Counted from the stretch's first letter, positions 10,481 through 57,481 are shown. The stretch: DNA of 64,000 nt from Acutalibacteraceae bacterium (GCA_045591225.1 JAZNSL010000056.1:19123-83122), one strand, 5' to 3'. Translations and numbers: made by a program. Notes: generated by a model not told the origin, from the letters alone.

Positions 10481-10635
10481 ATGAACAGCAACAAGAACGT
10501 GGTGCCCGAGGCTCGCGAGGGTATGAACCGCTTCAAGATGGAGGCCGCCAACGAGGTGGGCGTCAACCTGAAGCAGGGCTACAACGGCGACCTGACCTCC
10601 AAGCAGGCCGGCTCCATCGGCGGCCAGATGGTCAA
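10481..10635 (+). pseudogene. alpha/beta-type small acid-soluble spore protein gene, 5' part (interrupted by island)
   Basis: Reads MNSNKNVVPEAREGMNRFKMEAANEVGVNLKQGYNGDLTSKQAGSIGGQMV, which carries both SASP signature blocks. After GGQMV the ORF continues into AT-rich unrelated sequence (NIMTPVRT...). The missing KKMVEAYENGLK* tail is found at 57443-57481. Confidence 0.85.
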
Positions 10636-10656
10636 CATAATGACACCCGTACGAAC
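10613..10656 (+). other. attL junction (core AA at 10634-10635)
   Basis: Composition and SASP homology both break at cagatggtc|AA|cataatgacacccgtacgaac. Confidence 0.7.
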
Positions 10657-10763
10657 TTTACGATTTGATCGACATTATCGGTGGCTGAATGGGCATAAAA
10701 CTACGGTGAAGTATGCGTTTTCCTTTGCAGTGTGAAGCAAAAATGAAGAGATAAATAGAAAAA

Positions 10764-10795
10764 AGGTAGGCGAAATGCCTACCTTTTCTTTTGTT
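10764..10795 (+). terminator. rho-independent terminator at left end of island
   Basis: aggtaggc-gaaat-gcctacct followed by ttttcttttgttttt. In a circularised element it would terminate the recombinase ORF. Confidence 0.7.
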
Positions 10796-10878
10796 TTTAC
10801 ATTAAAAATTAAATTTAACTTGCTATTTTGATAAAAAAAGTGTATATTATTTTTATCAAAACGCTAACGAGGTAGCTT

Positions 10879-11487
10879 ATGAGTAACACAAGTCTTGCCA
10901 ATAGAATAAAAGAGCAAATTAATCGCTCTAAATATGGGACAGTATTTGTTTCTGTGGATTTTGCTGAATATGCAGACAAGAGTAGAATTGGCGTGATTTT
11001 GTCACGTCTTGAAGCAGATGGGATGATTCGTCGCATTTTGCGTGGGGTCTATTATAAACCCGAATACAGTCAATTCCTTCAAGAATATATTGCTCCGCTT
11101 CCGGATGATGTTGCACATGCTATTGCACGAAATTATGGGTGGACAATCGTTCCTTGTGGAGATACCGCATTAAATCTTTTAGGATTGTCCACACAAATCC
11201 CTGCAGCTTGGGTTTATGTGAGTGATGGTAAATACGAGAAATATTCTTACGAAAACACAACCATTCAGTTTAAGCATACAACTAACAAAGAGATTTCTAA
11301 ACTTTCGTATAAAACAGCATTGGTCGTTCAAGCACTAAAAGCTTTGGGAAAAGAAAATGTTAAAGATGCAATGATTAAAAAATTACAGTCTACCTTGACT
11401 TTGCCTGAAAAAGAGGCAATGTTGCTGGAGGCAAAAGCAGCAACATCATGGGTCTATGAATATATTAAATTGATTTGTAGAGGTTAA
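10879..11487 (+). CDS. abiEi: AbiEi-family antitoxin (type IV TA/abortive infection)
   Basis: 202 aa. The N-terminal wHTH-like segment is GTVFVSVDFAEYADKSRIGVILSRLEADGMIRRILRGVYYKP. The gene sits 4 nt upstream of the AbiEii gene. Confidence 0.7.
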   Translation: MSNTSLANRIKEQINRSKYGTVFVSVDFAEYADKSRIGVILSRLEADGMIRRILRGVYYKPEYSQFLQEYIAPLPDDVAHAIARNYGWTIVPCGDTALNLLGLSTQIPAAWVYVSDGKYEKYSYENTTIQFKHTTNKEISKLSYKTALVVQALKALGKENVKDAMIKKLQSTLTLPEKEAMLLEAKAATSWVYEYIKLICRG

Positions 11488-11491
11488 ACTT

Positions 11492-12490
11492 ATGCGTAAC
11501 ATAGCTAAATTGAGCGAAAAAGAGCGAAAGGCGCTCTTTCAAAATACAGCTGCAAAGATGGGACTTACAAATGCCATTATCGAAAAAGATTTTTGGGTTT
11601 GTTTTATGCTAGACTATTTGTTCCATCGTTGTAAGTGGAAAGATAATATTGCATTTAAAGGCGGTACAAGCCTTTCGAAGTCCTATAGTCTCATTGAGCG
11701 TTTTTCTGAAGATATCGATTTAATTCTGGATTGGAGAGTTATTGGTTTTTCTATAAATGAGCCGTGGGAAGAGCGTAGTAATACCAAGCAAGATGTTTTT
11801 AACAAAGAGGCAAATAGGCGTACTGAGGAATTTTTAAAGGAAACCTTTATGCCTCGAATGATTTCTGATCTACAAGAAGAACTAAACACGTCTATCAATT
11901 GTTATATTGAAGAAACAGACCCTCAAACGGTGGTGTTTGCGTACGATCGTAGCTTTGATGATTCTGCCATTTTGCCGGTTATTCGTCTTGAAATTGGTGC
12001 TTTAGCAGCATGGACTCCAGCGGAGCATCTTCCCATTACATCGTATGCGGCCAAACAATATCCGCAATTGTTTCAGGAACCTAGTACAAGCGTTTTAACA
12101 GTGCTCCCTAAACGGACTTTCTGGGAAAAGGTTACTATTTTACATCGCGAAGCATATAGACCTGACGATAAAGCATTTCCGCCGCGGTATTCTCGGCATT
12201 ACTATGATTTGTATTGTATGATGAATTCTCCAGTGAAAGAATCTGCTTTTGCTGACATTGATCTGTTGACAAAAGTTGTAGAGTTTAAAGAGAAATTCTA
12301 TCGTTGCTCTTGGGCCCGATATGATGAAGCCAAAGTAGGAACGATGAAACTGCTGCCTCCCGAAAGAAATCTACCGGTTTTGAGAGATGACTATAATCAT
12401 ATGCAAAATATGATATTTGGTGATAAACCTGATTTCGATGTGATTTTGCAGGGCGTTGGACAACTTGAGAAAGAAATAAATGCGCTTTGA
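11492..12490 (+). CDS. abiEii: AbiEii/AbiGii-family nucleotidyltransferase toxin
   Basis: 332 aa. FKGGTSLSKSYSLIERFSEDIDL is the characteristic NTase motif of DUF1814/AbiEii. Confidence 0.8.
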   Translation: MRNIAKLSEKERKALFQNTAAKMGLTNAIIEKDFWVCFMLDYLFHRCKWKDNIAFKGGTSLSKSYSLIERFSEDIDLILDWRVIGFSINEPWEERSNTKQDVFNKEANRRTEEFLKETFMPRMISDLQEELNTSINCYIEETDPQTVVFAYDRSFDDSAILPVIRLEIGALAAWTPAEHLPITSYAAKQYPQLFQEPSTSVLTVLPKRTFWEKVTILHREAYRPDDKAFPPRYSRHYYDLYCMMNSPVKESAFADIDLLTKVVEFKEKFYRCSWARYDEAKVGTMKLLPPERNLPVLRDDYNHMQNMIFGDKPDFDVILQGVGQLEKEINAL

Positions 12491-12569
12491 ATCGTTACAT
12501 TATGTAATGTTTTTCGTTGCAATAACGATTACAAGGACTGTAAAACCCTTTGTGGAAGGAATGTGTATT

Positions 12570-13502
12570 ATGAGTGATTTGTATATCAATAAGTGCAAAG
12601 CGTTCATAGGTTTTATGCTTTCGCAACAACAGTGGTCTGGTATCACACAAGCCAATATTGATTCTTGGATAAGCAATTTTAAAGGGCTGAGCCAAGAGGA
12701 ACAAAAGTTGGTTTATAAGTTACTTACAAACATTATATACTTTTCCGAAAATGATATTGTAGATGCGTTGAAAATGGGAGTCTATAAATGTTTGTCATAT
12801 GGGAGTATCCTTGCAAGACAAAAAGAATCCAATTTTTCAACAAGTCCGCATACTTTGCAGAGTGTTCATAATTCCAATGTGAACAAGGCGTGTTTTGTTC
12901 CTTTGCTAGATAGTGGTGGACCTCATGAAAGTGCAAACAATATGTGTCGCATATTAGTACAGCAAGGGATTATTCCTAGTGGAAAATCAATGTTTTTGGA
13001 TCAAGTTCCTGCATTGTTGCGGTCGGGTCAAGTAAATAATTTGGTGATAGTCGACGATTGTGTAGGTAGTGGAGATCAATTGAGGACATTTTGGGAAGAA
13101 GCAAGAGTTATTGACGAAGGCGTTTCGGTTTCTATAAGAGAATTGTGTGAAAAGTACCACGCAAATGTTAACTACCTTACTTTATTTGGGTACAATAAAA
13201 GTATTGCTGACTTAAGGAGTGAGTTTCCGGGTTTAAATATTTTTTGTGTGCGTGAACTTAACGATCAACATCGGGTGTTTTCTGCTTCTTCATATATGTG
13301 GGAGAATGAAGAAGAGAGAATCAAAGCCTTTACTTTATTTAATTCACTTGCCCAAAATGCTGGAATACCCATATATGGACATAAGGATTTGGATTTTGCT
13401 TTTATTATGCATAAAACTATTCCTGATTGGTCTCTTCCTATATTTTGGAAAGAGAATAGCGATTGGAAACTGTTGCTGAGGAGGAAAAATTCTCATGACT
13501 AA
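12570..13502 (+). CDS. phosphoribosyltransferase-like (PRTase-fold) protein
   Basis: The PRPP-loop-like motif is LVIVDDCVGSGDQL. I chose start ATG 12570 for RBS spacing (ggaagga). The stop overlaps the next gene (ATGACTAA). Confidence 0.55.
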   Translation: MSDLYINKCKAFIGFMLSQQQWSGITQANIDSWISNFKGLSQEEQKLVYKLLTNIIYFSENDIVDALKMGVYKCLSYGSILARQKESNFSTSPHTLQSVHNSNVNKACFVPLLDSGGPHESANNMCRILVQQGIIPSGKSMFLDQVPALLRSGQVNNLVIVDDCVGSGDQLRTFWEEARVIDEGVSVSIRELCEKYHANVNYLTLFGYNKSIADLRSEFPGLNIFCVRELNDQHRVFSASSYMWENEEERIKAFTLFNSLAQNAGIPIYGHKDLDFAFIMHKTIPDWSLPIFWKENSDWKLLLRRKNSHD

Positions 13503-15420
13503 TCAATACAACCCTTTTAAAGAAAATCGCACCGAGCAAATGCGCGATCTATGGAAATATTATGTACCTTTCCCAGGATTGGATGCTGCGGGGAAACCTT
13601 TAGTAGTAGAGGGCGGTCGTGGAAGTGGGAAAACTATGTTTTTTCAATGCAATTCTTGGCGCCAAAAAATCCTCGAGTTCCAAAAGAGTAGTAAGCCCAT
13701 TACTAATCTCATTGATAGCGAAGACTTCATAGGTATTTATTATCGTGTTGATACGACATTTGTATCATCAATGCGTGAGCGCGAAGAAGAGAATTGGGGA
13801 GCTATTTTTGAAACGTATTTAGGGATATGCATTTTGAAAGAGATTCTCGATTTGATTAGCACTCTAAATCAAAGTATGGCATTGAACGAAAGCGCTTTAT
13901 CTGATTTCTCGCTGGCATTTTCCAAAAAATTAAACACAAATAGTACTACGGATTCAATCGAGGCGTTTCGAAAGGATTGCGATGTTTATTTAGACATCAT
14001 AGAGGATAAGATAAATGGCTCCGAAACATTATCAAATCTAAGGTGTATAAATGCCAACCGATTTATCACGGATGTATGTGTTGCAACCAGAGAATTGCTG
14101 GGAGAAGAAGAGTTACTGTTTAAGATTTTTATCGATGAATACGAAACATTGCAAGAATATCAACAAAAAATAGTTAACACGTTGATAAAGCATAGTTCAC
14201 TTCCTGTGATTTTTAACATTGGATTACGTCCGGAAGGAATGAAAACAGCGGAGACTATTTCTGAGACGGAAACGATTGAAGCACCTCATGATTATGAATT
14301 GCTATTACTAGGGTTTGATCAAGACCAGTATCCTCAAATAATTAAAGCTATCTGTCAAAAACGTATTGCACTGGGAAAAGAACAGGGCAAAATACCTGAA
14401 TCTGCTTCTGATGATATCGAGTTTTATCTAGGAAACTATTCACTGGAGGAGGAATTGGAAAAGATTAATCAAACTAGCAAATCATTGCCTCACATAGAGA
14501 AACTACGCAAACTGATTTTGGAAAGAGCACCAGAGGAAGGAATCGCTGAGTATGATGTAGAGCAATATTGTCGAGTATTATGTGACGAAGCTCCCATATT
14601 AAATTCTCGAATGCACTACGCTTTGTTGTGTAAAAAAACGCAGTATACTCCGAGCATTCAAGATTTGTATGCATTTTATACAACTCTTGATAAAAGGTAC
14701 AGTGATTGGTTGCATAACAGGAAAAACGGCGTGATTTATTTGTTGTGCAAAGAGACTAAGCGTGACAAAATGTATTTTGGTTTTGATGTTTTTTCGGCAT
14801 TGTCTTCGAACATTGTTAGATATTTCTTAGAACTTTGCGAGCAGTCGTTTAAAATTGCCTTCTTGAACGATTACGATTGGACTACGAGAATTCCTCCAGA
14901 AATACAAACAGAGGCGGCACGTTACGTAAGCGAGTACAAAATTGTTGATATTGCTGGATATGAACCGTACGGAAAAGAACTGCGAATATTTGTTCAATAT
15001 TTGGGCCAAATGTTTAACAAATTGCATACGGCAGAAGATAGCACGTTAGGAGAACCGGAGCCTAATCATTTTTTTACCAAAGATTTATCGTTACCTGATG
15101 AGTCTAGAAAAAAGATCGCATCTGCAATTATGTGGAACGTCTTGCAAGAGGGAGAAACTACCAAGAAGAAGCAATCAAAATTGTCTCCTGAAACCGTGGA
15201 CTATTATTTGAATAAAATTTACGTTCCGTATTTTGGAATATCCTATCGCAATCAGCGGAAAATATTCCTTTCGGTTGATATTTTGCAAGAGCTTTTTTCT
15301 GGAAATGAAGAATTGGCTACATCTGGATTCAAAAAATTCTTCAGGGGAGATTCGGTGCCTGAGGCGGATGGTAGCCAACTTAATTTTTTCAATGTGGGGA
15401 CGGAGGAGAACGATGATTAA
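13495..15420 (+). CDS. P-loop NTPase (AAA+/STAND-like), 641 aa
   Basis: Walker A is VVEGGRGSGKTMF and Walker B-like is LFKIFIDEYETL. It has 8-nt start/stop overlaps with both neighbours. Confidence 0.65.
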   Translation: MTNQYNPFKENRTEQMRDLWKYYVPFPGLDAAGKPLVVEGGRGSGKTMFFQCNSWRQKILEFQKSSKPITNLIDSEDFIGIYYRVDTTFVSSMREREEENWGAIFETYLGICILKEILDLISTLNQSMALNESALSDFSLAFSKKLNTNSTTDSIEAFRKDCDVYLDIIEDKINGSETLSNLRCINANRFITDVCVATRELLGEEELLFKIFIDEYETLQEYQQKIVNTLIKHSSLPVIFNIGLRPEGMKTAETISETETIEAPHDYELLLLGFDQDQYPQIIKAICQKRIALGKEQGKIPESASDDIEFYLGNYSLEEELEKINQTSKSLPHIEKLRKLILERAPEEGIAEYDVEQYCRVLCDEAPILNSRMHYALLCKKTQYTPSIQDLYAFYTTLDKRYSDWLHNRKNGVIYLLCKETKRDKMYFGFDVFSALSSNIVRYFLELCEQSFKIAFLNDYDWTTRIPPEIQTEAARYVSEYKIVDIAGYEPYGKELRIFVQYLGQMFNKLHTAEDSTLGEPEPNHFFTKDLSLPDESRKKIASAIMWNVLQEGETTKKKQSKLSPETVDYYLNKIYVPYFGISYRNQRKIFLSVDILQELFSGNEELATSGFKKFFRGDSVPEADGSQLNFFNVGTEENDD

Positions 15421-16327
15421 AGAAGAGTACTCGTTTTGCCATATTGAAGATTATTTGTATGATAATATCGATTTGCTTATTGCAGGATTTGCAACCGCGG
15501 AGGAACGAAGCGGTTATTTTTCAGAATTATGGACAATCAAGAACAAAGATGTCCTCTTCCTTATGTTAGACGGCAACGAAACTGTTGTGTACCGATTTGT
15601 TCGTAATAACAATGTTGTGATGAAGGGTAGATGTGATCTTTGCGTTGGATTACCAAGGATATTAAGCCAAATTGGTATTGTTGAAAAAGAGGTATTACTT
15701 GATATGTCAAGCCTTGATAATGTATTGATCATGTTCATCACTAAACAATTGTTGACGAAAGTAACTCCCCGATCTTTTTTTGCATCGTATATTAGACCTG
15801 AAAAATATGTTAGTGAATCAGGAAATATAGGTTATGAATTATGTCAACAAATCGGCGCTGTTGATGCAGTCCCTGGCTTTGCAAAAAGAGAAACTGATAA
15901 TCAAACCTTATGTGCTTTTCTGGGCTTTGAAGGCGTTCGGTTAAAAGGCGTTTTGGAAGCTGTACACAGTTTTGAAAAATTAATACCTATTGTGGCTTTC
16001 CCTTCCGGCACACCACAATGGTATAACGTCACAATGTGGAATAGTATGGACATCCTTCAAAGCGAGGGGAAAAACCTCTCTGTTCACAAGTGTTATTCGG
16101 AAAGTGTATTTGAGGCGTTTGACCTTCTAAATAGCACTATCTCGCAAGATGAGACCGTTGTCTTGGCACCACTTGGAACGAGACCACATTCTATGGCTTG
16201 TGCCATTTATGCGTGCCATCATGGAGCCACGAGAATAGTATATGATTTTGTAGTAGAGAATGATCGTCGAGCAATGGGGATTGCAGACATAACTGTTTAT
16301 CATCTTTCTTCGTTTATTAAATCATAG
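15413..16327 (+). CDS. hypothetical protein, third gene of the operon
   Basis: 304 aa from MIKEEYSFCH, with RBS ggaggag and an ATGATTAA overlap with the ATPase gene. I recognise no motif with confidence. Confidence 0.55.
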   Translation: MIKEEYSFCHIEDYLYDNIDLLIAGFATAEERSGYFSELWTIKNKDVLFLMLDGNETVVYRFVRNNNVVMKGRCDLCVGLPRILSQIGIVEKEVLLDMSSLDNVLIMFITKQLLTKVTPRSFFASYIRPEKYVSESGNIGYELCQQIGAVDAVPGFAKRETDNQTLCAFLGFEGVRLKGVLEAVHSFEKLIPIVAFPSGTPQWYNVTMWNSMDILQSEGKNLSVHKCYSESVFEAFDLLNSTISQDETVVLAPLGTRPHSMACAIYACHHGATRIVYDFVVENDRRAMGIADITVYHLSSFIKS

Positions 16328-16344: not shown

Positions 16345-17406
16345 ATGGATTATAGCAAGTTCTATACTCCGCCTGAAATCGCAACTGCTCTAGTTAAGGA
16401 GCTTTCTATTCCTGCACCACAAAAAATCGTTGATATTTGTTGTGGAAGTTGCAATTTGCTTTTTGCAGCTAAAAAGCGATGGGCTGAAGCAAAACTATAT
16501 GGAGTGGATGTAGCAGAACAGTGCTTTACTGAAGATGTGATGTTTGAAAAAGGGGATGGCAGACAATTTGCAATTAAGCATCCCCGAGAATTTTCTTTGG
16601 TTGTGGCCAATCCTCCTTTTGACTATGTCAAGAGAAAGAAAGAATTTCCAAAACTATTCACGCAAGAGTTTGAGGATATTTCTACTTCTCGTTTGGAAGT
16701 AGAAATGCTAATAGCTAATTTGAAACTTTTGCAACCAGCTGGAGTTTTGTTGGTTATTGTGCCAAGCAGTTTGGTTGAAGCCAAAACGCATCAAAAAATC
16801 AGAAAAGTTGTTGCAGAGCATTATTTCGTTGAAAGCATAATAAAACTTGATGAATCCACTTTTGGTGCTTCCAAAATCAATAGTTACGCATTGATAATAC
16901 ATAATGAATTGCCAAATAACCAAACAACAAAATTGGGACATTCAGTCGGAAACCGTATCTCATATACAGCGTCTCTTGGGAGTGATAGCCTTAAAGAAGG
17001 CAATTGGACCATTGGTAATGTGCATAACGGTTTGCTTACTATGGAAATTAAACGAGGAAATATCTCTAGCGCTTCTTTTCTCACTAGAGGTCAACCCATT
17101 TTGCATACTGCCAAATGTAGCAGCCGTTGGAAACCTAGCAAAAGATATATTTCAACGAAAGTTGTTCCTACCGTTTTTGCGGAAACAGGAGATATAGTCG
17201 TGAGCCGAATTGGTAAATCGGCTGGACAATGGTGTGTGTATAATGGCCCCAAAACTCCAATTTCGGATTGTTTATATCGTATCAAGGATCCTGATGGTTC
17301 AATAGCAAATTTGATCAGTGGAAAAACTTTTGATAGGGCTTTAAAAGGGGTTGCAACGAGATATATAACTATAGACGATTTATGTATGTGGTTATCGAGT
17401 CAGTAA
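16345..17406 (+). CDS. N6-adenine DNA methyltransferase (gamma class, TaqI/Eco57I-like)
   Basis: FYTPPEIA, motif I VDICCGSCNLL and motif IV VVANPPFDY are present. The C-terminal ~150 aa are a plausible target-recognition domain. Confidence 0.8.
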   Translation: MDYSKFYTPPEIATALVKELSIPAPQKIVDICCGSCNLLFAAKKRWAEAKLYGVDVAEQCFTEDVMFEKGDGRQFAIKHPREFSLVVANPPFDYVKRKKEFPKLFTQEFEDISTSRLEVEMLIANLKLLQPAGVLLVIVPSSLVEAKTHQKIRKVVAEHYFVESIIKLDESTFGASKINSYALIIHNELPNNQTTKLGHSVGNRISYTASLGSDSLKEGNWTIGNVHNGLLTMEIKRGNISSASFLTRGQPILHTAKCSSRWKPSKRYISTKVVPTVFAETGDIVVSRIGKSAGQWCVYNGPKTPISDCLYRIKDPDGSIANLISGKTFDRALKGVATRYITIDDLCMWLSSQ

Positions 17407-17926
17407 AAGGCTAAAAATTCTTATAGATGGCCACTAAAAGAGGCGACAACTACATATGCGACATGGCTTGATAAACGCTCGATTCTCAACATTTCTAACA
17501 GTGTATAAGTTTATATAACTCTACGTTTTTCTGTGCGAAAACGGCGTAGAGAAAGCTAGTGAAAAGTTTGCAACAAAGGGTATCTTGCTACAAAAAAGCC
17601 ACCCAGCGGTGAGTCCTTTTGGGCTTATCGCTGCGTGCTTTTTATCGCGCATTCTTCTTGTACGCTATGGTATATGTTTACCAATCACACTTTGCTGCTT
17701 TGTGGCTATTGCCATATTACAATCGTGTGCGAGTTGCGTGATATGTTCTTTTAATATCTTGTCTTCTATATTGAATTGATATATCGCATAATGTGAAACG
17801 ACTTTAAAATTATTATGGAAATTTGGACTAAATAAGTTGATATATTTGACGGAATTTGCTAATATTGTACTAAATGATTCTGAAGCGTCACATCTGTTTA
17901 TGGAAAATGTTATGAGGAGGTTCCAA

Positions 17927-19126
17927 ATGAATCAGGAAGCTAAATTACTGGATGCTTTTAACCAAAAAGCATTTCAAGAGGAACTAACATCTGTTCGCTT
18001 GAAAATTGAATCTGAATTGAATACCTTTCTAACATATTTGAAAAAGCGATTATTACCAGAGCAGAAACTGTTTGACAACATTGAATCCCGTATCAAATCA
18101 TTGGATAGTTTTAAGGAGAAGATACATAGAAAAGATTATCTTCATATTTGGGCAATAGAGGATGATATAGTAGCGAATCAACGTCTTATTGCTACAAACT
18201 TACCTGACTTGATTGGTTTTCGGATAAATTGCTTTTTCTGGACAGATGAAAGTAAAATATATAAAATTCTTGAAGAATACTATAAGGAAGACAATTTCCC
18301 CAATTTTCAACTTGATTTTTCTGAGAATAAAACGCAGAAAAATGGACATACAATTTACAAACTTACAGGGAAATACTCAAACCCATTCGATGGGGATAAA
18401 GCGTATAACTTTGAAATACAGATAAAGTCAATTATGCATAACATCTGGGGTGAGGTTGATCATAAAACTATTTTTAAGAGTAGGGAATATGATGCGGACT
18501 GTTCAAGTAAAAAAGTAATTACCGAAGAGTTGTTTCACATCTTACAAGCATCTGATAAACAACTACTTACTTTATTGGGCAGAAAAAACGAAGAAAAGCG
18601 TTTGATATATTCACTTTTCTACAGTCAAACTAAGGAACAAATGATGAAAAAGTGTGGGACAGATATTTTGGCATCACATTACACAGGCTTTTTTGATTTT
18701 TTTGAAAAACACGAACCAACATATAGTTGCATTAAAAAATATGTTGCGCACACTCTTTTGGGAAAACCATATAATCGAGAATTACTGAATAAACTAGAAC
18801 CTAATGAAAGAATATCTCGTCTCCAAGCATCAATTTCTCGTGAGTTTTATCAGTATAATTTGCGGTGTATATTCTGTATTTTTGATTTGTTATACTCAAC
18901 AATTGATACTCCAGATCCCCTTGAGGAGGATTTGTTCAAGAACTTTCTAACTCATTTATCCGCATGGGCAATTGAGTTCGCCGGCGTGGGAGAAGATGAA
19001 GACTGTGAGGAGTTTGATGAGTTTGATTCTGACGATCTAAAGTCTGATGAAACGGCTTATAAAGATTCCACTGAAGATATTCTTAGATTTCTGAGTCAAA
19101 GGATAGGGGGGCGGAAAAATGATTGA
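17927..19126 (+). CDS. RelA/SpoT-homologue (small alarmone synthetase-like nucleotide pyrophosphokinase) with acidic C-terminal tail
   Basis: Synthetase motifs are IESRIKSLDSFKEKIHRK, DLIGFRINCF and FEIQIKSIMHNIWGEVDHKTIFK. The tail is EDEDCEEFDEFDSDD. RBS gaggagg lies 6 nt before ATG 17927. Confidence 0.7.
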   Translation: MNQEAKLLDAFNQKAFQEELTSVRLKIESELNTFLTYLKKRLLPEQKLFDNIESRIKSLDSFKEKIHRKDYLHIWAIEDDIVANQRLIATNLPDLIGFRINCFFWTDESKIYKILEEYYKEDNFPNFQLDFSENKTQKNGHTIYKLTGKYSNPFDGDKAYNFEIQIKSIMHNIWGEVDHKTIFKSREYDADCSSKKVITEELFHILQASDKQLLTLLGRKNEEKRLIYSLFYSQTKEQMMKKCGTDILASHYTGFFDFFEKHEPTYSCIKKYVAHTLLGKPYNRELLNKLEPNERISRLQASISREFYQYNLRCIFCIFDLLYSTIDTPDPLEEDLFKNFLTHLSAWAIEFAGVGEDEDCEEFDEFDSDDLKSDETAYKDSTEDILRFLSQRIGGRKND

Positions 19127-27399: not shown

Positions 27400-27447
27400 G
27401 GCGGGATAACACAAAACACTATATTTTAAGAAAGGATGACAGTTATT

Positions 27448-27915
27448 ATGAATTGGAATTTTAACCCCAGCGAATACACAGCGAGAGATTTTGCACTTAT
27501 CCCCGAGGGGGATCACAAGGTACGTATTAATAGTGTGGTCGAGAAGGTCTTTAGCACCGGCAACGAGGGCTTTGAGATTATGTTGGATGTTTCCGGTTTC
27601 AACAGCAAACTCTGGTATTACCTGGTTTTGGACCCTAAAGAGAGCGCTAAAACGAATCAGCGTCTTGGTATGTTCTTTGATTCGTTTGACATCCATGATT
27701 ACAATCTGTCTCGCTATAACGATTGGATTGGCAAGGATGGTGCTGTACGCGTAAAACATAGCCTATACAACGGCAATATGTCGGCTAACGTGATTTTCTG
27801 TCTCAGCCGTAAGCAGCAGGACAAGTTTTACGTACAGAAAACGGAGCCTTATGCTGTACAGACGCAGAAAACTAATGTGCGTCCTCAGTGGAACTTCGAT
27901 GGGCTGAGCTTTTGA
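27448..27915 (+). CDS. DUF669-like phage protein
   Basis: MNWNFNPSEYTARDFALIPEGDHKVRINSV..GNEGFEIMLDV matches the general N-terminal pattern of DUF669 phage proteins. This is recognition by eye only. Confidence 0.4.
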   Translation: MNWNFNPSEYTARDFALIPEGDHKVRINSVVEKVFSTGNEGFEIMLDVSGFNSKLWYYLVLDPKESAKTNQRLGMFFDSFDIHDYNLSRYNDWIGKDGAVRVKHSLYNGNMSANVIFCLSRKQQDKFYVQKTEPYAVQTQKTNVRPQWNFDGLSF

Positions 27916-28005
27916 TTTATACAAACTCGGGGCTATGGTCACGATGCTGTAGTCCCGAGAAATTACTAAAATGATTCAAATACAACAACAAAGGAGAACT
28001 TTATT

Positions 28006-29296: not shown

Positions 29297-29329
29297 AAAA
29301 TAATTTGTGAATCAAAAGGAGATTATATT

Positions 29330-48528: not shown

Positions 48529-51500
48529 ATGGAAAATGAAATTGTAAAAGATATTGCTAATGAACCTACGAACCTTGAGCAGACAACTATGTGTGTTGGT
48601 GAATCTGCTTTTTTTCACAATCCGATGGGTGATGAAACCACCGTTGATAATGAGACAACTTGGAGCAGTGACAATCCAGCTGTCGCGACTGTTAATGAAG
48701 TAAGTGGTCTTGTTTATGCGCAGCAAGAAGGCGAAACGGTTATTCGAGCAAATGGCGCAGGTCAGAGTTACGCGGTTACTGTGACTAATCGTGTGCTTGT
48801 AGAGGATATCATTTTAAGTGACACACATCTTGAACTCAATAGGGGAGATAGACGGGGTCTTAGCGCCACAATTTGTCCTTCGAATGCATCAAACAAAGGG
48901 ATTCGATGGTATAGCGGTAATGAGAATGTTGTTGTCGTTCATTCGTCTACGGGTTGCGTAACAGCCAAAAACGCCGGCAGAACTTACGTGTATGCTACTG
49001 CAAAAGACGAAAGCGGAATTCGATCTTGCTGTGAAGTTGTTGTGAAACAGACTGTCCCCAATAATGCTGAAGAAACTCCTGACAACAAAGTGCCGAATAG
49101 TACATTCGCAGACCCAGTTGATGTGTTTAGTGGAGCGCATTTGCTGAAAAATACTGTAATGACTTTGTTCGGCGGTCAAAGCGTACAGCTGATTGCTCAT
49201 TATAATTCCACTTATCTTGCGTGTGGAGTGTTCGGTTCTGGCTGGTATCACAATTTTGAAAAGCGAATTGTAATTGATGGCTCTGACGCGTTTGTTTATA
49301 ACAATCCTTCTATTTTCTCGCATTATATTGCAGAAAATGAGCAATGCACAACTTTTGTTTGTAACAGTGCAAATAAAAACGGGTATGTGCTCACTGTTGA
49401 TTATGCCAGTCAGTATCCGTATGTTGTCAATTGCAATTTTGCGAGAACTGAATACTATAACACTGAGGGTAATCTTGCAAAAATTGTTGATCATCAAGGG
49501 CATGAAATTACGATTGAGTATGCAGAGCTTCAAGTTGCGATTACTGATGGGGTATCCGGCAAAAAGATTTATCTAGATAAAGATGCGAATGGTAAGGTTG
49601 TTTGTGTACGTGATGATGCAGATAGATCCGCAACGATGACATATAACGGTAATCTGCTTTCTTCTATCAGTGATGTGAATGGTAACACCCTGACCTTTGT
49701 CTATGACGAAGAGGGCAGAGTGAAGAAGGGTTATGATTCCAAGGGCATTTGCTATTTTGAAAATACATACGATGAATACGGTCGTGTGATTCAGCAAAAA
49801 GATGCTATTCCCGGCTCTGCAAAGTCGGTGTTTGTTTACGATGATAATCTTCGAGTCACTACTGACCGAAATGGTAAACAGAGCGTCCGTGAATATGATG
49901 GCAATGGGCTTCTGATTCGTTATACCGATGAGAATGGTAATATCATCACCTACGAGTACGACGAACATTGTAATGTTGTCAAAGAGACTGATGCTATTGG
50001 AAATTCTGTAACGAAAGTATACAATGATTTTAACAAGCCTACTGAAATTACGGATAAAAACGGTAACAAGACTTGCTTCACCTATGATGCCAATGGTAAC
50101 GTGACAAAGATTCAGTATCCTGCAATTAATGGCCTGGTACCTGAGGAGACTTTCGTTTATAATAGTTGCAATCAGCTGATTCAACACTCTGACATTCGAG
50201 GGACTGTAACTACCTATACCTATGACGCCAATGGGATGCCGAAAACTAAGAAAGTGGGCAGTAAGAATGCGATTGTTTATTCTTATGAGGATGGTCTGCT
50301 AAAATCTCAGACCGACGCCATGGGTAACACGACAAGATATACTCACAACGCTATTGGACAGGTAAGCACTGTTACTGCTGCAGATAACAAAGTAACGCAA
50401 TATGTCTATGATAACTATGGAAATCTGCTTCGTTTGATCGATGCTGACGGAAACACTGTGACTACTGTCTATGATGGCAACTATCAAAAGGTTTCTGTGA
50501 CCGATGCTAATGGAAACACAACTGAATATTCTTACAATGGCAATATGAAGAACGATGTTGTTATGCTACCTGATGGTCATGTTATTCGATACGAGTTTGA
50601 TGGCGAGGATAGAGTTGTCAAGATTACCGATCAAGCAAATAATGTTACTGATATTACCTATGACAATGGGGGGAGAGTGGTCTCTAAACGGTTTGCCGAC
50701 GGCGCGCTCGTTCAGTATGAGTATGATGCAGTTGGCAACGTGGTAAAAGAAACGAACCCTAAGGGTGCCGTTACTGTTAAGACTTATGATAACCTCGGTA
50801 ACATTTTGAGTGTCACTGATGCTGAAGGTAATGTGACCACCTATGAGTACAATGCTATGTCGAAGGTTGTGAGGAGCGTAAATGCAAAAGCTGGTGCTAC
50901 CGTATATGTCTATTCCAAGTCCGGTGACCTTCTCTCTGAGACGGATGCCATGGGCCACACCAAAACCTATACTTACGATGCGTATGGCAACCGACTCACG
51001 ATGACGGATGCACGGAATTATACGACCACTTATACCTACGATCAGAACAACAATTTGCTCACGGTCAAGGATCCGCTGAATCACGTTACCACCTATACCT
51101 ACAACTGCCTCAATCAGTGTGTGTCTGTTAAGGATGCTCTGAACAATACGATTCAGTATGGCTACGATGCTCTCGGCAGACGAACGACCATTACTGATGC
51201 CCGTGGCAATGTGTTTACGACCACCTATGATGGCAACGGTAACGTTATCAAGACCACCGATGCTAAGGGGAATATCGTCAGTGAAACGGTGTACAACTGT
51301 TTGAACTTGCCTCTTACTGTTACCGATGCGATGGGCAAGGTAACCACCTACACCTACAATGCACTCGGCAAAGTGGAGAGTGTCACTGACTCTATGCATC
51401 ATCGTCAGGAATATTCGTACAATTCCCGTGGTCAGAACACTGCTGTTCTGGATTCGGCAAACAATACCAGCACGGCTACTTATGACCTGCTTGGTAATGT

Positions 51501-53523
51501 GATTCGTCTCGCGGGACCTCTCGGTGGTGCTACCAATTATACCTACGATAATATGGGGCGTCTCGTATCTGAGTCCACCGTTTCTGGTGGTACCAAGAAC
51601 TACGAATACAATGAGTTGAATATCCGCAAGAAGATCACTAACGCACGGGGGCAGATCCGCCAGGTATTCCATGATGCCATGGGTCGAATCACCGGCTATA
51701 CTTCTCCCGAAGGTGCGGTGAGTTATACTTATGATGCCAACGGCAACGTGTTGACGGTGACGGATAGCCACGGCACGATTACGAGAACTTATGATGCTTT
51801 GAATCGTATTGCAAGTTATACCGATACCTATGGTAAAATGATTCGGTATGAGTATGACGCAGTGGGGAACCTGTCCAAGCTAATTTATCCCGATAATACG
51901 GCAGTAACCTATGCGTATGATGCTAACCATAATTTGATTCGGGTTACTGACTGGGCGAATCGAGTGACTGCTTATACCTACGACGCGAATAATCGAATCG
52001 TTGAAGTGACCAAGCCGGATGGTAGCGTAACTACTACTACCTATGACAATATGCAGCGTGTCACCTCTACGGTAGTAAGAGCAATGTCCGGTGCTGTTAT
52101 TGCCGGATTTGAGTACACCTATGACAATCTGTCGAGAATTGTGGAAGAAAAACATCTTGCAGATGGTGTTAAATTGTGCTATATTTATGATAACCTGAGT
52201 CGTGTGATCAAGCGTACCGTGAAGTGCCTGGAGAGCAACACGGTGTTGTCTGAGGAAACCTTCACCTACGATGCGGCAGGTAACATCACCGATGCACCCG
52301 ACAGTTGTTTCCAGTATGACACCAACAACCGACTGGTAGTGTTTAATGGCCATGCAGTAACCTACGACCTTGACGGCAATATGCTGAATGATGGTGAGCG
52401 GAACTTTAGTTACGATTCGGCTAACCGACTGGTAACCGCCGACAGTCATACGTACACCTACAACGCCGAGGATATGCGCATCCGCAATTGTTGCGAGAGT
52501 GGTGAGGACACGACTTATACCCATGATGCCAGTGTAAAACTTAGCAGATTGCTCTGCAAGACTACCAACGGTGTTGTTACCAAGTATGTCTATGGACGTG
52601 GACTCATCGGTGAGGAGGTAAGCGGCACATTTAAGACTTACCACTGCGATTGCAGAGGCAGCACCATTGCAATCACCGATGCAAGCGGAAGTATCACCGA
52701 TACCTTTGCATACGATACCTATGGAAAGATGATTGAGCATTGTGGCAATAGTGCGGTTATTTTCGGCTACAACGGCCGGGATGGTGTCGTGACGGATGAT
52801 AACGGGCTGATCTATATGCGTGCCCGGTATTACAGCCCCGATATGAAGCGATTCATCAATGCGGATATTGTTGCCGGCGAGATCTCCAACGCCATCACCC
52901 TCAACCGCTTCTCCTACGCCAACGGCAACCCGGTTTCCTTCGTGGATCCGTTTGGACTGAGTGCAGAGAGGGGCAGTGTAGATTTGTCAACTGTGTTGTC
53001 TGCAGATGACTTGAAAAAACTTAAACAGCTCTATGATTTAACCTCTCTTGAGCTAGATGCTTTTGATATAAGCCTACAAGTATTGCACTCTTCTCTCAAA
53101 GATGGCCTTAATAAGGCTGTTCGACCAAACAATATCCCTAAAGGTGTGTGGCAGAAGCAAATAGACGCTGATTTGAAATGGTTAGATGATATTCTTGGAC
53201 CAGCATCTAAACTTTCAAAGACGCTTGATACAGTATCTATGCCATTGATTGATGCAACTATGGTTTTTGTTGATGCAGGGATTGGATATTATGAAAATAT
53301 TCAAAATAATGAATCTTCACAGGAAGTATATACCGACCTTGCAATAGATCTAGGGGTAGGTGCAACTACTGCTGGTCTCTCTTTTATAGTTACTTCGGCG
53401 ATTACAGGATCTGCTTTTGGTACAGCCTGTCCGGTCGTAGGAAATGTCTTAGGTTTTCTTGTGGGTCTGGCGATAGGCGTTGGAGGATATTATTTAGGTC
53501 AGGCACTGGATGACGCAATGTAA
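48529..53523 (+). CDS. RHS/YD-repeat polymorphic toxin with N-terminal Big_2 domains and glycine-zipper C-terminal toxin domain
   Basis: 1664 aa. Two Ig-like Big_2 units come first (SSDNPAVATVNE.., GIRWYSGNENVVVV). Then FADPVDVFSGAH and dozens of YD repeats (YTYDANGN, YEYDAVGN...). The core ends ..YANGNPVSFVDPFGL (52945-52959). The following 187-aa tail ends in a Gly/Ala-rich hydrophobic segment. Confidence 0.9.
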   Translation: MENEIVKDIANEPTNLEQTTMCVGESAFFHNPMGDETTVDNETTWSSDNPAVATVNEVSGLVYAQQEGETVIRANGAGQSYAVTVTNRVLVEDIILSDTHLELNRGDRRGLSATICPSNASNKGIRWYSGNENVVVVHSSTGCVTAKNAGRTYVYATAKDESGIRSCCEVVVKQTVPNNAEETPDNKVPNSTFADPVDVFSGAHLLKNTVMTLFGGQSVQLIAHYNSTYLACGVFGSGWYHNFEKRIVIDGSDAFVYNNPSIFSHYIAENEQCTTFVCNSANKNGYVLTVDYASQYPYVVNCNFARTEYYNTEGNLAKIVDHQGHEITIEYAELQVAITDGVSGKKIYLDKDANGKVVCVRDDADRSATMTYNGNLLSSISDVNGNTLTFVYDEEGRVKKGYDSKGICYFENTYDEYGRVIQQKDAIPGSAKSVFVYDDNLRVTTDRNGKQSVREYDGNGLLIRYTDENGNIITYEYDEHCNVVKETDAIGNSVTKVYNDFNKPTEITDKNGNKTCFTYDANGNVTKIQYPAINGLVPEETFVYNSCNQLIQHSDIRGTVTTYTYDANGMPKTKKVGSKNAIVYSYEDGLLKSQTDAMGNTTRYTHNAIGQVSTVTAADNKVTQYVYDNYGNLLRLIDADGNTVTTVYDGNYQKVSVTDANGNTTEYSYNGNMKNDVVMLPDGHVIRYEFDGEDRVVKITDQANNVTDITYDNGGRVVSKRFADGALVQYEYDAVGNVVKETNPKGAVTVKTYDNLGNILSVTDAEGNVTTYEYNAMSKVVRSVNAKAGATVYVYSKSGDLLSETDAMGHTKTYTYDAYGNRLTMTDARNYTTTYTYDQNNNLLTVKDPLNHVTTYTYNCLNQCVSVKDALNNTIQYGYDALGRRTTITDARGNVFTTTYDGNGNVIKTTDAKGNIVSETVYNCLNLPLTVTDAMGKVTTYTYNALGKVESVTDSMHHRQEYSYNSRGQNTAVLDSANNTSTATYDLLGNVIRLAGPLGGATNYTYDNMGRLVSESTVSGGTKNYEYNELNIRKKITNARGQIRQVFHDAMGRITGYTSPEGAVSYTYDANGNVLTVTDSHGTITRTYDALNRIASYTDTYGKMIRYEYDAVGNLSKLIYPDNTAVTYAYDANHNLIRVTDWANRVTAYTYDANNRIVEVTKPDGSVTTTTYDNMQRVTSTVVRAMSGAVIAGFEYTYDNLSRIVEEKHLADGVKLCYIYDNLSRVIKRTVKCLESNTVLSEETFTYDAAGNITDAPDSCFQYDTNNRLVVFNGHAVTYDLDGNMLNDGERNFSYDSANRLVTADSHTYTYNAEDMRIRNCCESGEDTTYTHDASVKLSRLLCKTTNGVVTKYVYGRGLIGEEVSGTFKTYHCDCRGSTIAITDASGSITDTFAYDTYGKMIEHCGNSAVIFGYNGRDGVVTDDNGLIYMRARYYSPDMKRFINADIVAGEISNAITLNRFSYANGNPVSFVDPFGLSAERGSVDLSTVLSADDLKKLKQLYDLTSLELDAFDISLQVLHSSLKDGLNKAVRPNNIPKGVWQKQIDADLKWLDDILGPASKLSKTLDTVSMPLIDATMVFVDAGIGYYENIQNNESSQEVYTDLAIDLGVGATTAGLSFIVTSAITGSAFGTACPVVGNVLGFLVGLAIGVGGYYLGQALDDAM

Positions 53524-54829: not shown

Positions 54830-55080
54830 GGGAGTAAGCGTATAGTCTGGATTGCCTGCAGAGAGGCGGATTGCTTTTAAGCACGGTTAAAATACATATT
54901 GCGGTACAGGACTCAGTAAACGTCAATTGTGAATCGCGTGTAAAAAGCCGAAAGTGTACGGTATCACCAAACTTAAGCATTCTAGGATTTAAAAGAAGCT
55001 TTACTTCAACTTTGATGAACGCAAGTTTAATCAGTTGTACAGTGAATTTCAGTTGTATTTGTATCAAGCGCCGCGGGTAA
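54830..55080 (+). pseudogene. decayed paralogue of the replication-organiser-like gene 30612..31028
   Basis: TGLSKRQL*IACKKPKVYGI...KKLYFNFDERKFNQLYSEFQLY aligns with TGLSKHQQLTACKELQEYGI...KKRYFKFNVGKFNQLHSDFQLY, but it carries in-frame stops. Confidence 0.55.
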
Positions 55081-55161
55081 CACCTGAACCGTCTGAACGT
55101 CAACACCCCGGTTTTGCAGGTTTTAGTTTCTAATTTCATTAGATAAATGTTGAACGAATAT

Positions 55162-55205
55162 AGTCCAGAAATCAAATTCCGGTTGTTTGATTTCTGGACT
55201 TTTTC
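55162..55205 (+). terminator. rho-independent terminator
   Basis: agtccagaaatcaaa-ttccggttg-tttgatttctggact plus tttt. Confidence 0.7.
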
Positions 55206-55508
55206 AGTTCAGAAACTAAACATAAATAATAGTAATCAATAATAATAAAAAATAATATTTGTGCTATAAAACTTCTGCGAAGCTTTATAGCATTTATAGA
55301 TAGAAATTGCTAGAAAATGTATTGTTAATTATCTTTAGCTATTTAATGAAAGTAAAGGAAGTGGTTCAAAAAATGAACAATTGGGGAGGGGGTAAAAAGT
55401 GATGAAAGGTGTGAAAAATAGAAATTCTATACTGTATTATATAGTGTGGGGTATATTTTGAGTTTTATATTTAAAAATTAAAATTGTGTAATGAAAAGAG
55501 GTGAGTGG

Positions 55509-55673
55509 ATGAAGAAGACTTTGTCGACTGATGAGCAAGAGAGAAGATGGGCAGAAGATACTTGGCTTAATTATTTTAATAGGTATCTTTTCGAGAATGG
55601 TACGATTTCGGAAAAAGAGTATAAGAAAATGACTGAGAAGATTGCGATCAGAAAGGCAAAGTTTTCTTGTTAA
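55509..55673 (+). CDS. small basic protein upstream of the large serine recombinase (possible directionality/accessory factor)
   Basis: 54 aa, MKKTLSTDEQERRWAEDTWLNYFNRYLFENGTISEKEYKKMTEKIAIRKAK.., with RBS gaggtgag. The function is inferred from position only. Confidence 0.4.
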   Translation: MKKTLSTDEQERRWAEDTWLNYFNRYLFENGTISEKEYKKMTEKIAIRKAKFSC

Positions 55674-55810
55674 GAACATGCTATCTGATCGCATTTTCTT
55701 TGATCTGAGAAATTATGACAAAGTTTGTTTGGGGCATTGCTTTTTCGCTTCATTTACGATATAATCATAATTAATAATGATGATACGACGAACTTTGCGA
55801 GGTGAAATGA

Positions 55811-57481
55811 ATGGATATTTTGAGTATTCGCACGTCGCTGCGGACTAAAACAATATATGACATCCCTTTGCGGGTAACGTTCTATGCTCGTGTGTCTTCG
55901 GATACCGATGAGCAGTTGAATTCCTTGGATAACCAGGTGTCTTATTACGAGAATTTTATCAAAAAGAATAGAGCCTGGACTTTTGTGCCCGGCTATATTG
56001 ACGAGGGTCTGTCGGGTATCTCCACGAAGAAGAGAAAACACTTCAATGAGATGATTGCCGATGCCGAAGAGGGTAAGTTCGATTTGATTATCACCAAGGA
56101 GATCTCCCGTTTTGCCCGTAATACTTTGGACTCTTTGCAGTACACCCGTGAACTACTCGGTAAAGGTGTGGGTGTGTTCTTTCAAAACGATAACATCAAT
56201 ACGCTAGACGAGGACGCAGAACTGCGTCTGACCATTATGTCCTCCATCGCACAGGACGAATTGCGAAAGCTTTCTTCTCGTGTGAAGTTTGGTCATCAGC
56301 AGGCCATCAAGTCCAACGTGGTGTTGGGTAACAGCCGCATCTTTGGATACAAGAAAGAGGATAAGCGCCTGGTCATTGACGAGAGCCAGGCACCGATGGT
56401 GCGGGATCTGTTTCGGCTGTATGCTACCGGCGAGTACAGTATGAAGCAGTTGGAGACGCTGTTCTATGAGCAGGGATATCGCAACTACAACGGTAATAAG
56501 ATTGCCCACACCACTATGTCCGGTATTATCTCTAATCCTAAATATAAAGGATATTATGTAGGCAACAAAGTGCGCATCGTGGATATGTTCACCAAGAAGC
56601 AGAAGTTCCTTCCGCCTGAGGAATGGGTGATGTTCAAGGACGAGACGGGTGAGATTGTGCCTGCCATCGTGTCCGAGGAAGTGTGGGATAGAGCGAACGA
56701 GGTTTTGGCTCGCAGAAGCGAGGACGTGAAGAGCCGTAAAGGTGTGTGCAACCACGCCAACCTGCTGACGGGAAAACTGTTCTGTGCCCATTGTGGCGCG
56801 GCCTATTACCGCAGAGAATCCCGCAGCAAGGACGGCACGGTGAACTCCAAATGGGTGTGCTCCAATAAGATTAACAACGGAGCGGATGCCTGCCCGTCTT
56901 TCCCGATCTACGAAAGTGAGATAAAGCCGATTCTGTTCGAGGTGTTCAGTGAAACACGGGTGGACGTGGAAGCGCTGTTAGCGAGCTATGAAGAGATGTT
57001 CCGCTCGCTGGAGGCGGATGACGAGACCGCCAAACTCATCGAAGAGCAGAAGCGGATTATCGAATTGGCGGATCAGAAGAAGAACAAACTCTTGGAGTTG
57101 GTTACTACAGGTTCCATCACCAACGCAAACTTCAAATCGATGACCGACAAGTGCGACCGGGAGATTGAGGAAGCACAGAAAGTCCTCTTGGAGCTGGAAG
57201 AGGAGATGTTCACTCGCGAAGAGTACCAGAAGCATATGAACGAGGTGAAATCTCGTTTGGAGGCGGCGGTTCGAGATGCTGCCTCCGGAATGATTACCAA
57301 CGAGTTTGTGGCGCAGTATATTGATCGGATTTTCGTCACGATTGAGGAGGATGGTACGGCACGGCTGGAAATCAAGATTTTCACCGGCAAAAGTACCGAG
57401 AAATGGCTCCTGAAATTAAAAGGTCGTATGGGTCACACGTCTAAGAAGATGGTTGAGGCTTACGAGAACGGTCTGAAATAA
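55811..57481 (+). CDS. large serine recombinase (integrase of the island)
   Basis: 556 aa. Has TFYARVSSDTDEQ (catalytic Ser), ISRFARNT, a recombinase domain, the zinc ribbon CAHCGAAYY...WVCSNK and a coiled coil. The last 13 codons including the stop (57443-57481) are the 3' end of the SASP gene. Confidence 0.9.
   Translation: MDILSIRTSLRTKTIYDIPLRVTFYARVSSDTDEQLNSLDNQVSYYENFIKKNRAWTFVPGYIDEGLSGISTKKRKHFNEMIADAEEGKFDLIITKEISRFARNTLDSLQYTRELLGKGVGVFFQNDNINTLDEDAELRLTIMSSIAQDELRKLSSRVKFGHQQAIKSNVVLGNSRIFGYKKEDKRLVIDESQAPMVRDLFRLYATGEYSMKQLETLFYEQGYRNYNGNKIAHTTMSGIISNPKYKGYYVGNKVRIVDMFTKKQKFLPPEEWVMFKDETGEIVPAIVSEEVWDRANEVLARRSEDVKSRKGVCNHANLLTGKLFCAHCGAAYYRRESRSKDGTVNSKWVCSNKINNGADACPSFPIYESEIKPILFEVFSETRVDVEALLASYEEMFRSLEADDETAKLIEEQKRIIELADQKKNKLLELVTTGSITNANFKSMTDKCDREIEEAQKVLLELEEEMFTREEYQKHMNEVKSRLEAAVRDAASGMITNEFVAQYIDRIFVTIEEDGTARLEIKIFTGKSTEKWLLKLKGRMGHTSKKMVEAYENGLK
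57422..57465 (+). other. attR junction (core AA at 57443-57444)
   Basis: ggtcgtatgggtcacacgtct|AA|gaagatggttgaggcttacgag. To the right of the core the sequence is the SASP 3' end. Confidence 0.7.
57443..57481 (+). pseudogene. alpha/beta-type SASP gene, 3' part
   Basis: KKMVEAYENGLK* is the canonical C-terminal continuation of ...GSIGGQMV at 10633. Joined, the two parts give a 63-aa SASP. Confidence 0.8.

Follow-up and report, generated by a model that had tools for sequence, protein, structure and literature searches.

Why is a spore-protein gene in a gut bacterium split by tens of kilobases of DNA, and does the split serve sporulation or only the DNA that causes it? The locus lies in a 64,000-nucleotide stretch of an Acutalibacteraceae bacterium genome assembly (GCA_045591225.1 JAZNSL010000056.1:19123-83122); this whole stretch is the window below, and coordinates are counted from its first letter. 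Within it, a gene for a small acid-soluble spore protein (SASP) is interrupted by a 46.8-kb island. We consider it likely that this is a mosaic integrative island, inserted by its own large serine recombinase (LSR) into a SASP gene used as a safe-harbour site. An initial annotation of the same DNA had proposed an LSR-integrated island with crossover at AA, had rebuilt its attB and attP, and had raised the prospect of developmental excision. Independent sequences bear out the structural part of that proposal, whereas developmental excision is unproven and is not the explanation that we favour.

The features that define the split gene and its attachment (att) sites are as follows.

10481..10633, plus strand: SASP 5' part, codons 1-51, ending GGQMV (translation; rebuilt protein matches PF00269; 97-98% identity to the intact proteins P0002 and P0003)
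10610..10660, plus strand: attL, made of the attB left half GGCGGCCAGATGGTC, core AA at 10634-10635 and attP right arm CATAATGACACCCGTACGAAC (same attL in L025 and L028)
57419..57470, plus strand: attR, made of the attP left arm GGTCGTATGGGTCACACGTCT, core AA at 57443-57444 and attB right half GAAGATGGTTGAGGCTTACGAG (family consensus from 78 loci)
57443..57481, plus strand: SASP 3' part, KKMVEAYENGLK and stop (translation; contiguous in the intact loci L001 and L002)
57498..57523, plus strand: SASP terminator hairpin CAGCCGGGG-ATTT-CCCCGGCTG-TTTT, now also the recombinase gene terminator (read directly; not listed by the consensus scan)

The open reading frame (ORF) at 10481-10633 translates as MNSNKNVVPEAREGMNRFKMEAANEVGVNLKQGYNGDLTSKQAGSIGGQMV, ends its SASP portion at GSIGGQMV and then enters unrelated sequence. 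Codons 52-63 and the stop codon follow at 57443-57481, in a frame that continues both the SASP 5' part and the recombinase ORF described below. The two parts lie on the same strand, 46,809 bp apart, and every coordinate and sequence given for them in the initial annotation matched. Joined, they encode a 63-amino-acid (aa) SASP that aligns with PF00269 from end to end (profile positions 1-59 of 59, E = 9.8e-30, 102.8 bits against a cut-off of 22), a match that takes in both conserved blocks. GC content is 0.33-0.43 inside the island versus ~0.55 on both sides, returning to ~0.55 after 57.4 kb, and the shifts fall at both att junctions. The left junction is GGTC-AA-CATA, the right one GTCT-AA-GAAG, and they share only AA; because the bases adjoining AA differ between attB and attP, the exchange can be placed only within this dinucleotide, as had been claimed for the 2-bp crossover core. 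The insertion point is the AA of GTC-AAG (Val51-Lys52), within the conserved GGQMVKKM block. Upstream of the SASP gene, in a region conserved with L001, L002 and L025, no convincing sigma-G motif could be assigned.

Uninterrupted alleles, for which the initial annotation had recommended a search, were found in metagenomes and carry the rebuilt attB. A protein search returned intact 63-aa SASPs that are 98% (P0002) and 97% (P0003) identical to the rebuilt protein, and the DNA of L001 and L002 aligns unbroken over the rebuilt junction, from ~115 bp upstream of the start to past the terminator. Over the 32-base stretch GGCCAGATGGTC-AA-GAAGATGGTTGAGGCTTA that surrounds the core, L001 matches throughout and L002 at all bases but one. 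Outside the SASP gene, blastn detected no synteny in L001; L002 reaches ~245 bp beyond the junction on the right side. For the other partner of the exchange, the rebuilt attP is GGTCGTATGGGTCACACGTCT-AA-CATAATGACACCCGTACGAAC, with 9 of 10 positions complementary at distances 10-19 from the core, which reproduces the imperfect palindrome noticed earlier; by our own calculation, the chance of such complementarity at a fixed register is ~3e-5. In relatives the arms are complementary at all ten positions (GGTCGTACGGGT / ACCCGTACGAAC), the left arm GGTCGTACGGGT being the one that makes them perfect, and the island's arms agree with the family consensus except at one natural variant base. Two metagenome contigs (L026 and L027) and one phage contig (L013) contain natural contiguous attP sites in the order arm, 9 nt, core, 9 nt, arm. 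The reconstruction of attB and attP is confirmed to the base.

Pattern scans for attP returned little. Exact-pattern scans of viral contigs gave no match to the rebuilt attP or its right arm, and a metagenome scan with the right arm recovered only one further attL (L025). The attP of L027 is genuine in sequence, with its upstream part fused to a transposase-like fragment, and is weak evidence for an active circle. The locus L075 was considered as an unintegrated attP and rejected, being a place where two convergent recombinase genes overlap at an attP-like palindrome. Those LSR genes span 8230-11525 of L075 and overlap by 88 bp at GGTCGTGTGGGCCACACTATG-AA-AAAAATGTCACCCGCACGACC, an arrangement that two elements may have produced by recombining with each other.

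The enzyme responsible is encoded at the right end of the island, and part of its gene lies at the left end.

55811..57481, plus strand: LSR ORF as integrated, 556 aa, with residues 1-544 encoded by the element and the last 12 by the SASP tail (Pfam)
10634..10735, plus strand: native LSR C-terminus, 33 codons and stop, NIMTPVRTLRFDRHYRWLNGHKTTVKYAFSFAV, here fused in frame to SASP codons 1-51 (conserved in diverged elements; P0258 and P0269-P0271)
10761..10787, plus strand: intrinsic terminator 26 bp after the tail stop, a 12-bp stem followed by a T run (analogous hairpins after the tail in L013, L026 and L028)

In line with the proposal that an LSR integrated the island, the 556-aa ORF contains all three LSR domains in Pfam searches: Resolvase (PF00239, residues 24-169, 1.8e-30), Recombinase (PF07508, residues 192-302, 2.1e-18) and Zn_ribbon_recom (PF13408, residues 318-377, 1e-11). 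A YARVSS catalytic motif was read directly at residues 25-30, and residues ~380-490 are heptad-like and charge-rich by eye. Among PDB entries the protein matches 3g13 best (E = 3.3e-40), a structure of the catalytic domain from a conjugative-transposon recombinase, and identity to any annotated phage recombinase in the collection searched is at most 34%. DUF4368, a domain common in multi-targeting LSRs (PMC10083194), was absent from the Pfam results for this protein.

The LSR ORF crosses attR and uses the SASP stop codon as its own, a feature overlooked in the initial annotation. In the attP state, its frame would instead enter the left end of the island and stop at 10735, 33 codons past the core. 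Since attP lies inside the LSR gene, integration yields two in-frame chimeras: at attL, SASP(1-51) gains the 33-aa recombinase tail, with the element's terminator behind it; at attR, recombinase(1-544) gains the last 12 aa of the SASP, with the SASP terminator behind them. Among nine diverged elements, the native tail has 33 codons in all but one, where it has 34, and keeps the common pattern P5, R7-T8, R13, R16, H21, T24-V25 and Y27. Across tail codons 10-33, which lie outside the attP arm, AA-core elements differ at synonymous sites (pS) by 0.45-1.06, near saturation, and at non-synonymous sites (pN) by 0.04-0.49. The 33-aa tail is conserved, and these values indicate that it is under selection. 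The terminator at 10761-10787 is predicted to end the LSR transcript in the attP state and to block read-through from the SASP promoter when the element is integrated. No described serine integrase with its attP core inside its own ORF and a conserved tail beyond it is known to us, and limited text searches gave none.

The same target is used across a large family. A search with the LSR protein gave at least 8,000 candidates, the best 120 of which show 87-100% identity and, with few exceptions, a length of 556-560 aa; all 16 metagenome LSR proteins inspected end in varied SASP tails (for example KKMIQAYEQGLK, KKMIESYENSMK and KKMVEAYENSIKTNG). Among species-representative genomes, at least 535 stretches encode an LSR relative, and family counts here are from the best 80 (69-89% identical). 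Almost all of these come from Oscillospirales metagenome-derived genomes of ruminant and human gut, with one isolate, Clostridiales bacterium NK3B98 (L100), and the LSR ORF ends in a SASP tail in ~75 of the 80. The 78 attR sites collected in a pattern survey have GGTCGTACGGGTcaCACGttn as their P-arm consensus and include 50 distinct right (B') arms of attB. SASP tails also terminate the relatives in viral contigs (65-70% identity) and a 55% relative from a faecal virome record. In one binned genome, two SASP genes with different tails are occupied (L052 and L065), which hints at multi-copy SASP genes in these hosts. A sub-lineage with a different core provides a further check. In L073 (11571-11871) and L082 (11556-11856) the core is TT, and the SASP 5' part follows the recombinase directly on the opposite strand, convergent with an LSR ending ...LTI and stop; a matching TT-core attP is present at 11680-11760 of L013. 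Reversed insertion is the outcome expected if the central dinucleotide sets polarity, and it supports the core assignment.

A few relatives sit in other sequences. In P0259, from a 46-kb ENA contig, the recombinase ORF runs into the C-terminal part of a ParE/RelE-type toxin (tail KIMKRIRQ...), and L070 (11607-11700) holds another non-SASP site; both look like secondary or off-target attachment. LSRs fused to a SASP tail were also seen in a Coriobacteriaceae bin (L033) and a Sphaerochaetaceae bin (L086), which are probably mis-binned because those taxa form no spores. Two SASPs, P0001 (95 aa) and P0017 (74 aa), contain an internal tandem duplication of the conserved block, which may be assembly collapse or expansion of paralogues, or may be real. 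SASP genes as attachment sites are not mentioned in the literature searched, which included the text and supplements of an LSR survey (PMC10083194) and whose coverage was incomplete.

What the family members carry between their att sites varies. Three complete small elements of ~11.5 kb each consist of attL, cargo, recombinase and attR, with unrelated cargo: a type III Wadjet system and two toxin-antitoxin-like pairs in L100 (the pairs from ORF translations only), a putative sortase/pilin/adhesin operon in L061 (from ORF translations only), and a defence candidate, a methyltransferase-like giant protein and a WYL regulator in L098. None of the three has recognisable phage genes. L013, by contrast with these non-phage islands, is a 137.6-kb phage contig with DNA polymerase, NrdD, virion protein and endolysin genes and a 64%-identical LSR in the attP state; the recombination unit is therefore common to both. 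In L013, a tyrosine integrase gene (12211-13200) adjoins the attP-state serine recombinase, giving the phage a second integration system.

Upstream of the LSR gene lies a second conserved component of the unit.

55509..55673, plus strand: conserved 54-aa ORF, listed as 60 aa from 55491 (ribosome-binding site and start read from sequence)
55737..55765, plus strand: housekeeping-type promoter motif TTGCTT-17 nt-TATAAT before the LSR gene (conserved in a 60-sequence alignment)

The 54-aa ORF stands directly upstream of the LSR gene in 69 of the 80 genome loci and is 72-79% identical among the loci sampled. It has no significant family match, the only signal being a sub-threshold one to SHOCT_2, and it is a candidate directionality factor or regulator of the recombination unit. 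Of the 11 loci without it, at least two (L070 and L098) hold the full upstream flank and several others end at a contig edge. The promoter motif before this ORF, TGGTATATT, is likewise conserved and of housekeeping type. The LSR promoter was not called by the consensus scan, its first hexamer matching at only 3 of 6 positions. In the alignment and in positional k-mer counts, which were not a rigorous test, no sigma-F-, sigma-G-, sigma-E- or sigma-K-type motifs were seen before either gene.

Between its att sites, the island is a patchwork.

10879..12490, plus strand: AbiEi/AbiEii toxin-antitoxin pair, abortive infection, cargo (Pfam DUF6088 and AbiEii; PADLOC AbiEi 3e-64, AbiEii 2.7e-107)
12480..16327, plus strand: candidate defence cluster of PRTase-CE, ORC/CDC6-like ATPase and CARF-like proteins, cargo (Pfam PRTase-CE 3e-48, ORC-CDC6-like 2.3e-106; PADLOC PRTase_III-A, CARF6)
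16345..20150, plus strand: N6 DNA methyltransferase, RelA/SpoT-like nucleotidyltransferase and DndB/DpdB-like protein, cargo (Pfam, PADLOC)
25833..26537, minus strand: small serine recombinase of resolvase/invertase type (Pfam Resolvase 1.1e-18; 82% identical to the counterpart in L003 and L007)
27436..31028, plus strand: backbone block of SSB-like protein, 235-aa protein and N-terminal fragment of a replication initiator, RepO/DnaD-like (PHROGs; collinear in tblastx with L003, L007 and L009 at 66-75%)
31394..33097, plus strand: phage-type lysis cassette of XhlA-like haemolysin, holin and N-acetylmuramoyl-L-alanine amidase (PHROGs haemolysin, holin 1.8e-20; Pfam Amidase_2)
33378..36187, both strands: TIR-domain protein (plus), P-loop NTPase (minus) and Xer-like tyrosine recombinase (plus), within a ~24-kb segment absent from the backbone of relatives
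48529..53523, plus strand: 1,664-aa Rhs/YD-repeat toxin, cargo (Pfam RHS_repeat 9.7e-135, 22 repeats)
55002..55059, plus strand: 58-bp stretch that repeats 30900-30957, the RepO-like gene's 3' end, in direct orientation at 88% (tblastx of 54891-55055 against L003 6430-6594)

The defence block occupies 10.9-20.2 kb of the window, and its three-gene cluster at 12480-16327 matches candidate defence models only. The stretch from 24.4 to 31.0 kb is a backbone common to L003, L007 and L009, in which the replication-initiator gene is reduced here to a 138-aa fragment. A segment of ~24 kb (about 31-55 kb) that is absent from these relatives contains the lysis cassette, the TIR and tyrosine recombinase genes, nucleotide-enzyme genes and the Rhs gene. 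The 58-bp repeat brackets this segment and suggests tandem accretion of two related elements; a second direct repeat pair, at 25568-25648 and 54568-54647, is 78% identical over 81 bp. From this gene content, the island appears to be a phage-derived remnant with a lysis cassette and not a functional temperate prophage. The Rhs toxin has Big_2 domains and is followed, within 48529-54181, by a 207-aa multi-pass membrane protein that could be an Rhs immunity or accessory protein. At 54212-54600, a GC-rich self-complementary stretch (…GGGAGGGGGACCGCCGAACGGCGGTGGAGGGG… CCCCTTTACACAAGGGGGCC…) has long, spurious-looking ORFs on both strands; Rfam and tRNA scans gave nothing inside the island, this stretch included.

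How such an element could come to reside in a SASP gene is best considered from the biology of the target. SASPs are forespore proteins, as known for the family from Bacillus and Clostridium, with sigma-G expression assumed; their genes form a multigene, partly redundant family and are silent in growing cells. Such a gene would offer a suitable landing site because the DNA-binding helix fixes ~40 bp order-wide, because related copies would buffer its loss and because it would be silent during growth. The element entered by attP x attB exchange at AA, and attL x attR recombination could remove it precisely as it stands. Its recombination unit comprises the 54-aa ORF, the recombinase gene and an attP within the frame of that gene, 33 codons before the natural stop, and is common to a large clade in gut Oscillospirales that carries swappable cargo, mostly defence systems, into a target that protein constraint appears to hold fixed across hundreds of species. 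Once integrated, the island's terminator would shield it from the strong spore promoter. Serine integrases integrate unidirectionally and require a directionality factor to excise, so excision of the island, if it occurs, would need such a factor, with the 54-aa ORF as the candidate.

Several points weigh against this safe-harbour explanation. No second SASP gene is present within the window, so redundancy of the disrupted gene is not visible there. Among the 20 island ORFs scanned with PHROGs, none matched capsid, portal, terminase or tail genes, the only matches being the SSB-like protein, initiator fragment, haemolysin and holin, and no conjugation genes were recognised in the island. The exact island was not seen elsewhere in the databases searched, and the closest relative of its LSR among the matches listed is 93% identical. 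Promoter calls rest on consensus and conservation, with a weak -35 element before the LSR gene; the 33-aa tail could be selected for its part in the SASP chimera and not in the recombinase; and integration is deduced from assembled sequence.

We do not think that the interruption is a developmental switch. An island of this kind could be a programmed gene-intervening element, excised at sporulation, in the forespore or before septation, so that the SASP gene is rebuilt while a circle persists or reintegrates at germination; we judge this unlikely. It would fit the in-frame interruption of a sporulation gene from which precise removal is possible, the pairing of a recombinase with a small partner ORF as in SprA/SprB and CD1231/CD1234 (PMC5499854, PMC5025042), and the recovery by the LSR of its native, selected tail only on excision. 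Excision in the forespore would, however, lose the element from the germ line, and the known cases are confined to the mother cell (PMC4191935). The partner ORF is missing from 11 of 80 relatives, as described above, and the motifs conserved before it and before the LSR gene are of housekeeping and not sporulation type; from these motifs we see no sign of programmed excision and therefore favour the safe-harbour explanation. The SSB-like and replication-initiator-like backbone genes could support an episome, although the latter survives only as its 138-aa fragment, and together with the tail swap they leave room for a cycle of excision, persistence and reintegration. With SASPs multigene, rebuilding is not obviously required, and a single LSR clade sits in many SASP paralogues, including two in one binned genome. 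Also unlikely is a self-contained switch on a forespore gene, in which tail exchange would report and perhaps set direction (a native tail to integrate, a SASP tail to excise or stay silent) as the element leaves in the spore or at germination, forms a circle and reinserts, or in which the SASP(1-51)-tail chimera would be a functional spore protein.

It is similarly improbable that the island entered by serine recombination and is now a fixed remnant, an immobile, decaying composite kept by selection on its cargo in the manner of a skin-like relic. The lack of virion and conjugation genes, the mosaic build with its ~24-kb accretion, 58-bp repeat and truncated initiator gene, the presence of two more recombinase genes inside the island, and the heterogeneous GC content would fit such decay. 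Yet the recombination parts are intact: the LSR ORF with its three domains, the 54-aa ORF, the 33-codon tail, and both att arms at family consensus bar the one natural variant base. Empty sites in near-identical SASP alleles further indicate that the island is polymorphic for presence and absence. An assembly artefact, or a chance likeness of two unrelated SASP-like fragments, has a negligible probability. The source is one draft contig (105,852 bp), and no supporting point was found; the same architecture recurs in dozens of independent assemblies, the GC shift falls at the att sites, and the two halves, once joined, match Pfam over the whole profile and have the same bases at the junction as natural alleles do.

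Described intervening elements occupy mother-cell targets, with excision confined to the terminally differentiated mother cell (PMC4191935, PMC5025042), and the remark in the initial annotation that such elements are known for mother-cell genes agrees with the literature (PMC4191935, PMC5595907). The island resembles SPbeta in spsM (SprA/SprB) and skin in sigK (SpoIVCA; CD1231/CD1234 in C. difficile) in having an LSR at one end and in the precise insertion of a 40-130-kb prophage or remnant into a sporulation gene. In those systems a small partner protein controls direction, whereas here the 54-aa ORF is only a candidate for that role; their targets are mother-cell genes, whereas the SASP is, from family knowledge, a forespore protein, and no sporulation promoter is evident in the island. 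It has a recombinase of its own and precisely splits a sporulation gene, without a mother-cell target. The likeness is strongest to the gin element in gerE of Bacillus cereus ATCC 10987, which lacks phage-related genes and has several serine recombinase genes (PMC5595907). Like the SASP-targeting elements it splits a very short sporulation gene, and L061, L098 and L100 are likewise free of recognisable phage genes; gin is described from a single locus, in the mother-cell regulator gerE, whereas the SASP clade spans many species-representative genomes and SASP paralogues.

Likenesses extend to elements outside sporulation. SCCmec uses the large serine recombinases CcrAB or CcrC to integrate into and excise from the end of rlmH without destroying the gene. 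The island shares with it a cargo-bearing build without transfer genes of its own, a serine recombinase unit, a conserved gene 3' end as target and exchangeable cargo; it differs in splitting the target ORF 12 codons before its end and in having attP inside the recombinase ORF. Listeria phages A118 and phi10403S reside in single-copy comK under 'active lysogeny': infection triggers their excision, and the lineage keeps the prophage. They too are serine-integrase elements in a conserved, conditionally needed gene that precise excision can restore, infection-triggered excision being a feature of the comK system. In the tyrosine family, Mx8 IntP and the SSV1 integrase have attP within the integrase coding sequence, and the Mx8 prophage enzyme gains a different C-terminus. 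Integration thus alters or splits the integrase gene there as well, with a tyrosine in place of a serine recombinase.

So far, every sporulation gene known to be interrupted has been one of the mother cell, where the element pays no price for excision; the wide spread of this family in a forespore gene indicates that the rule is not absolute and allows a direct test of tolerance through gene redundancy against a new strategy. An attB of ~50 bp appears to be kept constant by protein constraint across an order of gut anaerobes that are hard to engineer, which makes the recombinase, the 54-aa ORF and attP a candidate broad-host integration tool. The family carries defence systems (Wadjet, AbiE, and PRTase/CARF and TIR candidates) between gut Clostridia. 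An attP within a serine-integrase ORF, followed by a selected tail, could bear on directionality control. If true, the switch described above would make this the first case of a germ-line sporulation gene interrupted heritably and reversibly.

Outside the island, the flanks are made up of chromosomal host genes: an ECF sigma/anti-sigma pair, an MBOAT gene, an ABC-2 transporter and tRNA-Gln. The tRNA-Gln (CTG) gene lies at 57720-57793 on the minus strand, 240 bp downstream of the SASP stop. NTP_transf_5 genes occur both in the island (38340-39407), beside a thymidylate-kinase-like gene and an AMP-binding enzyme, and in the host flank (61746-62903), where a Gut-1 sRNA (Rfam RF01706, 60 bits) was also found at 59517-59591.

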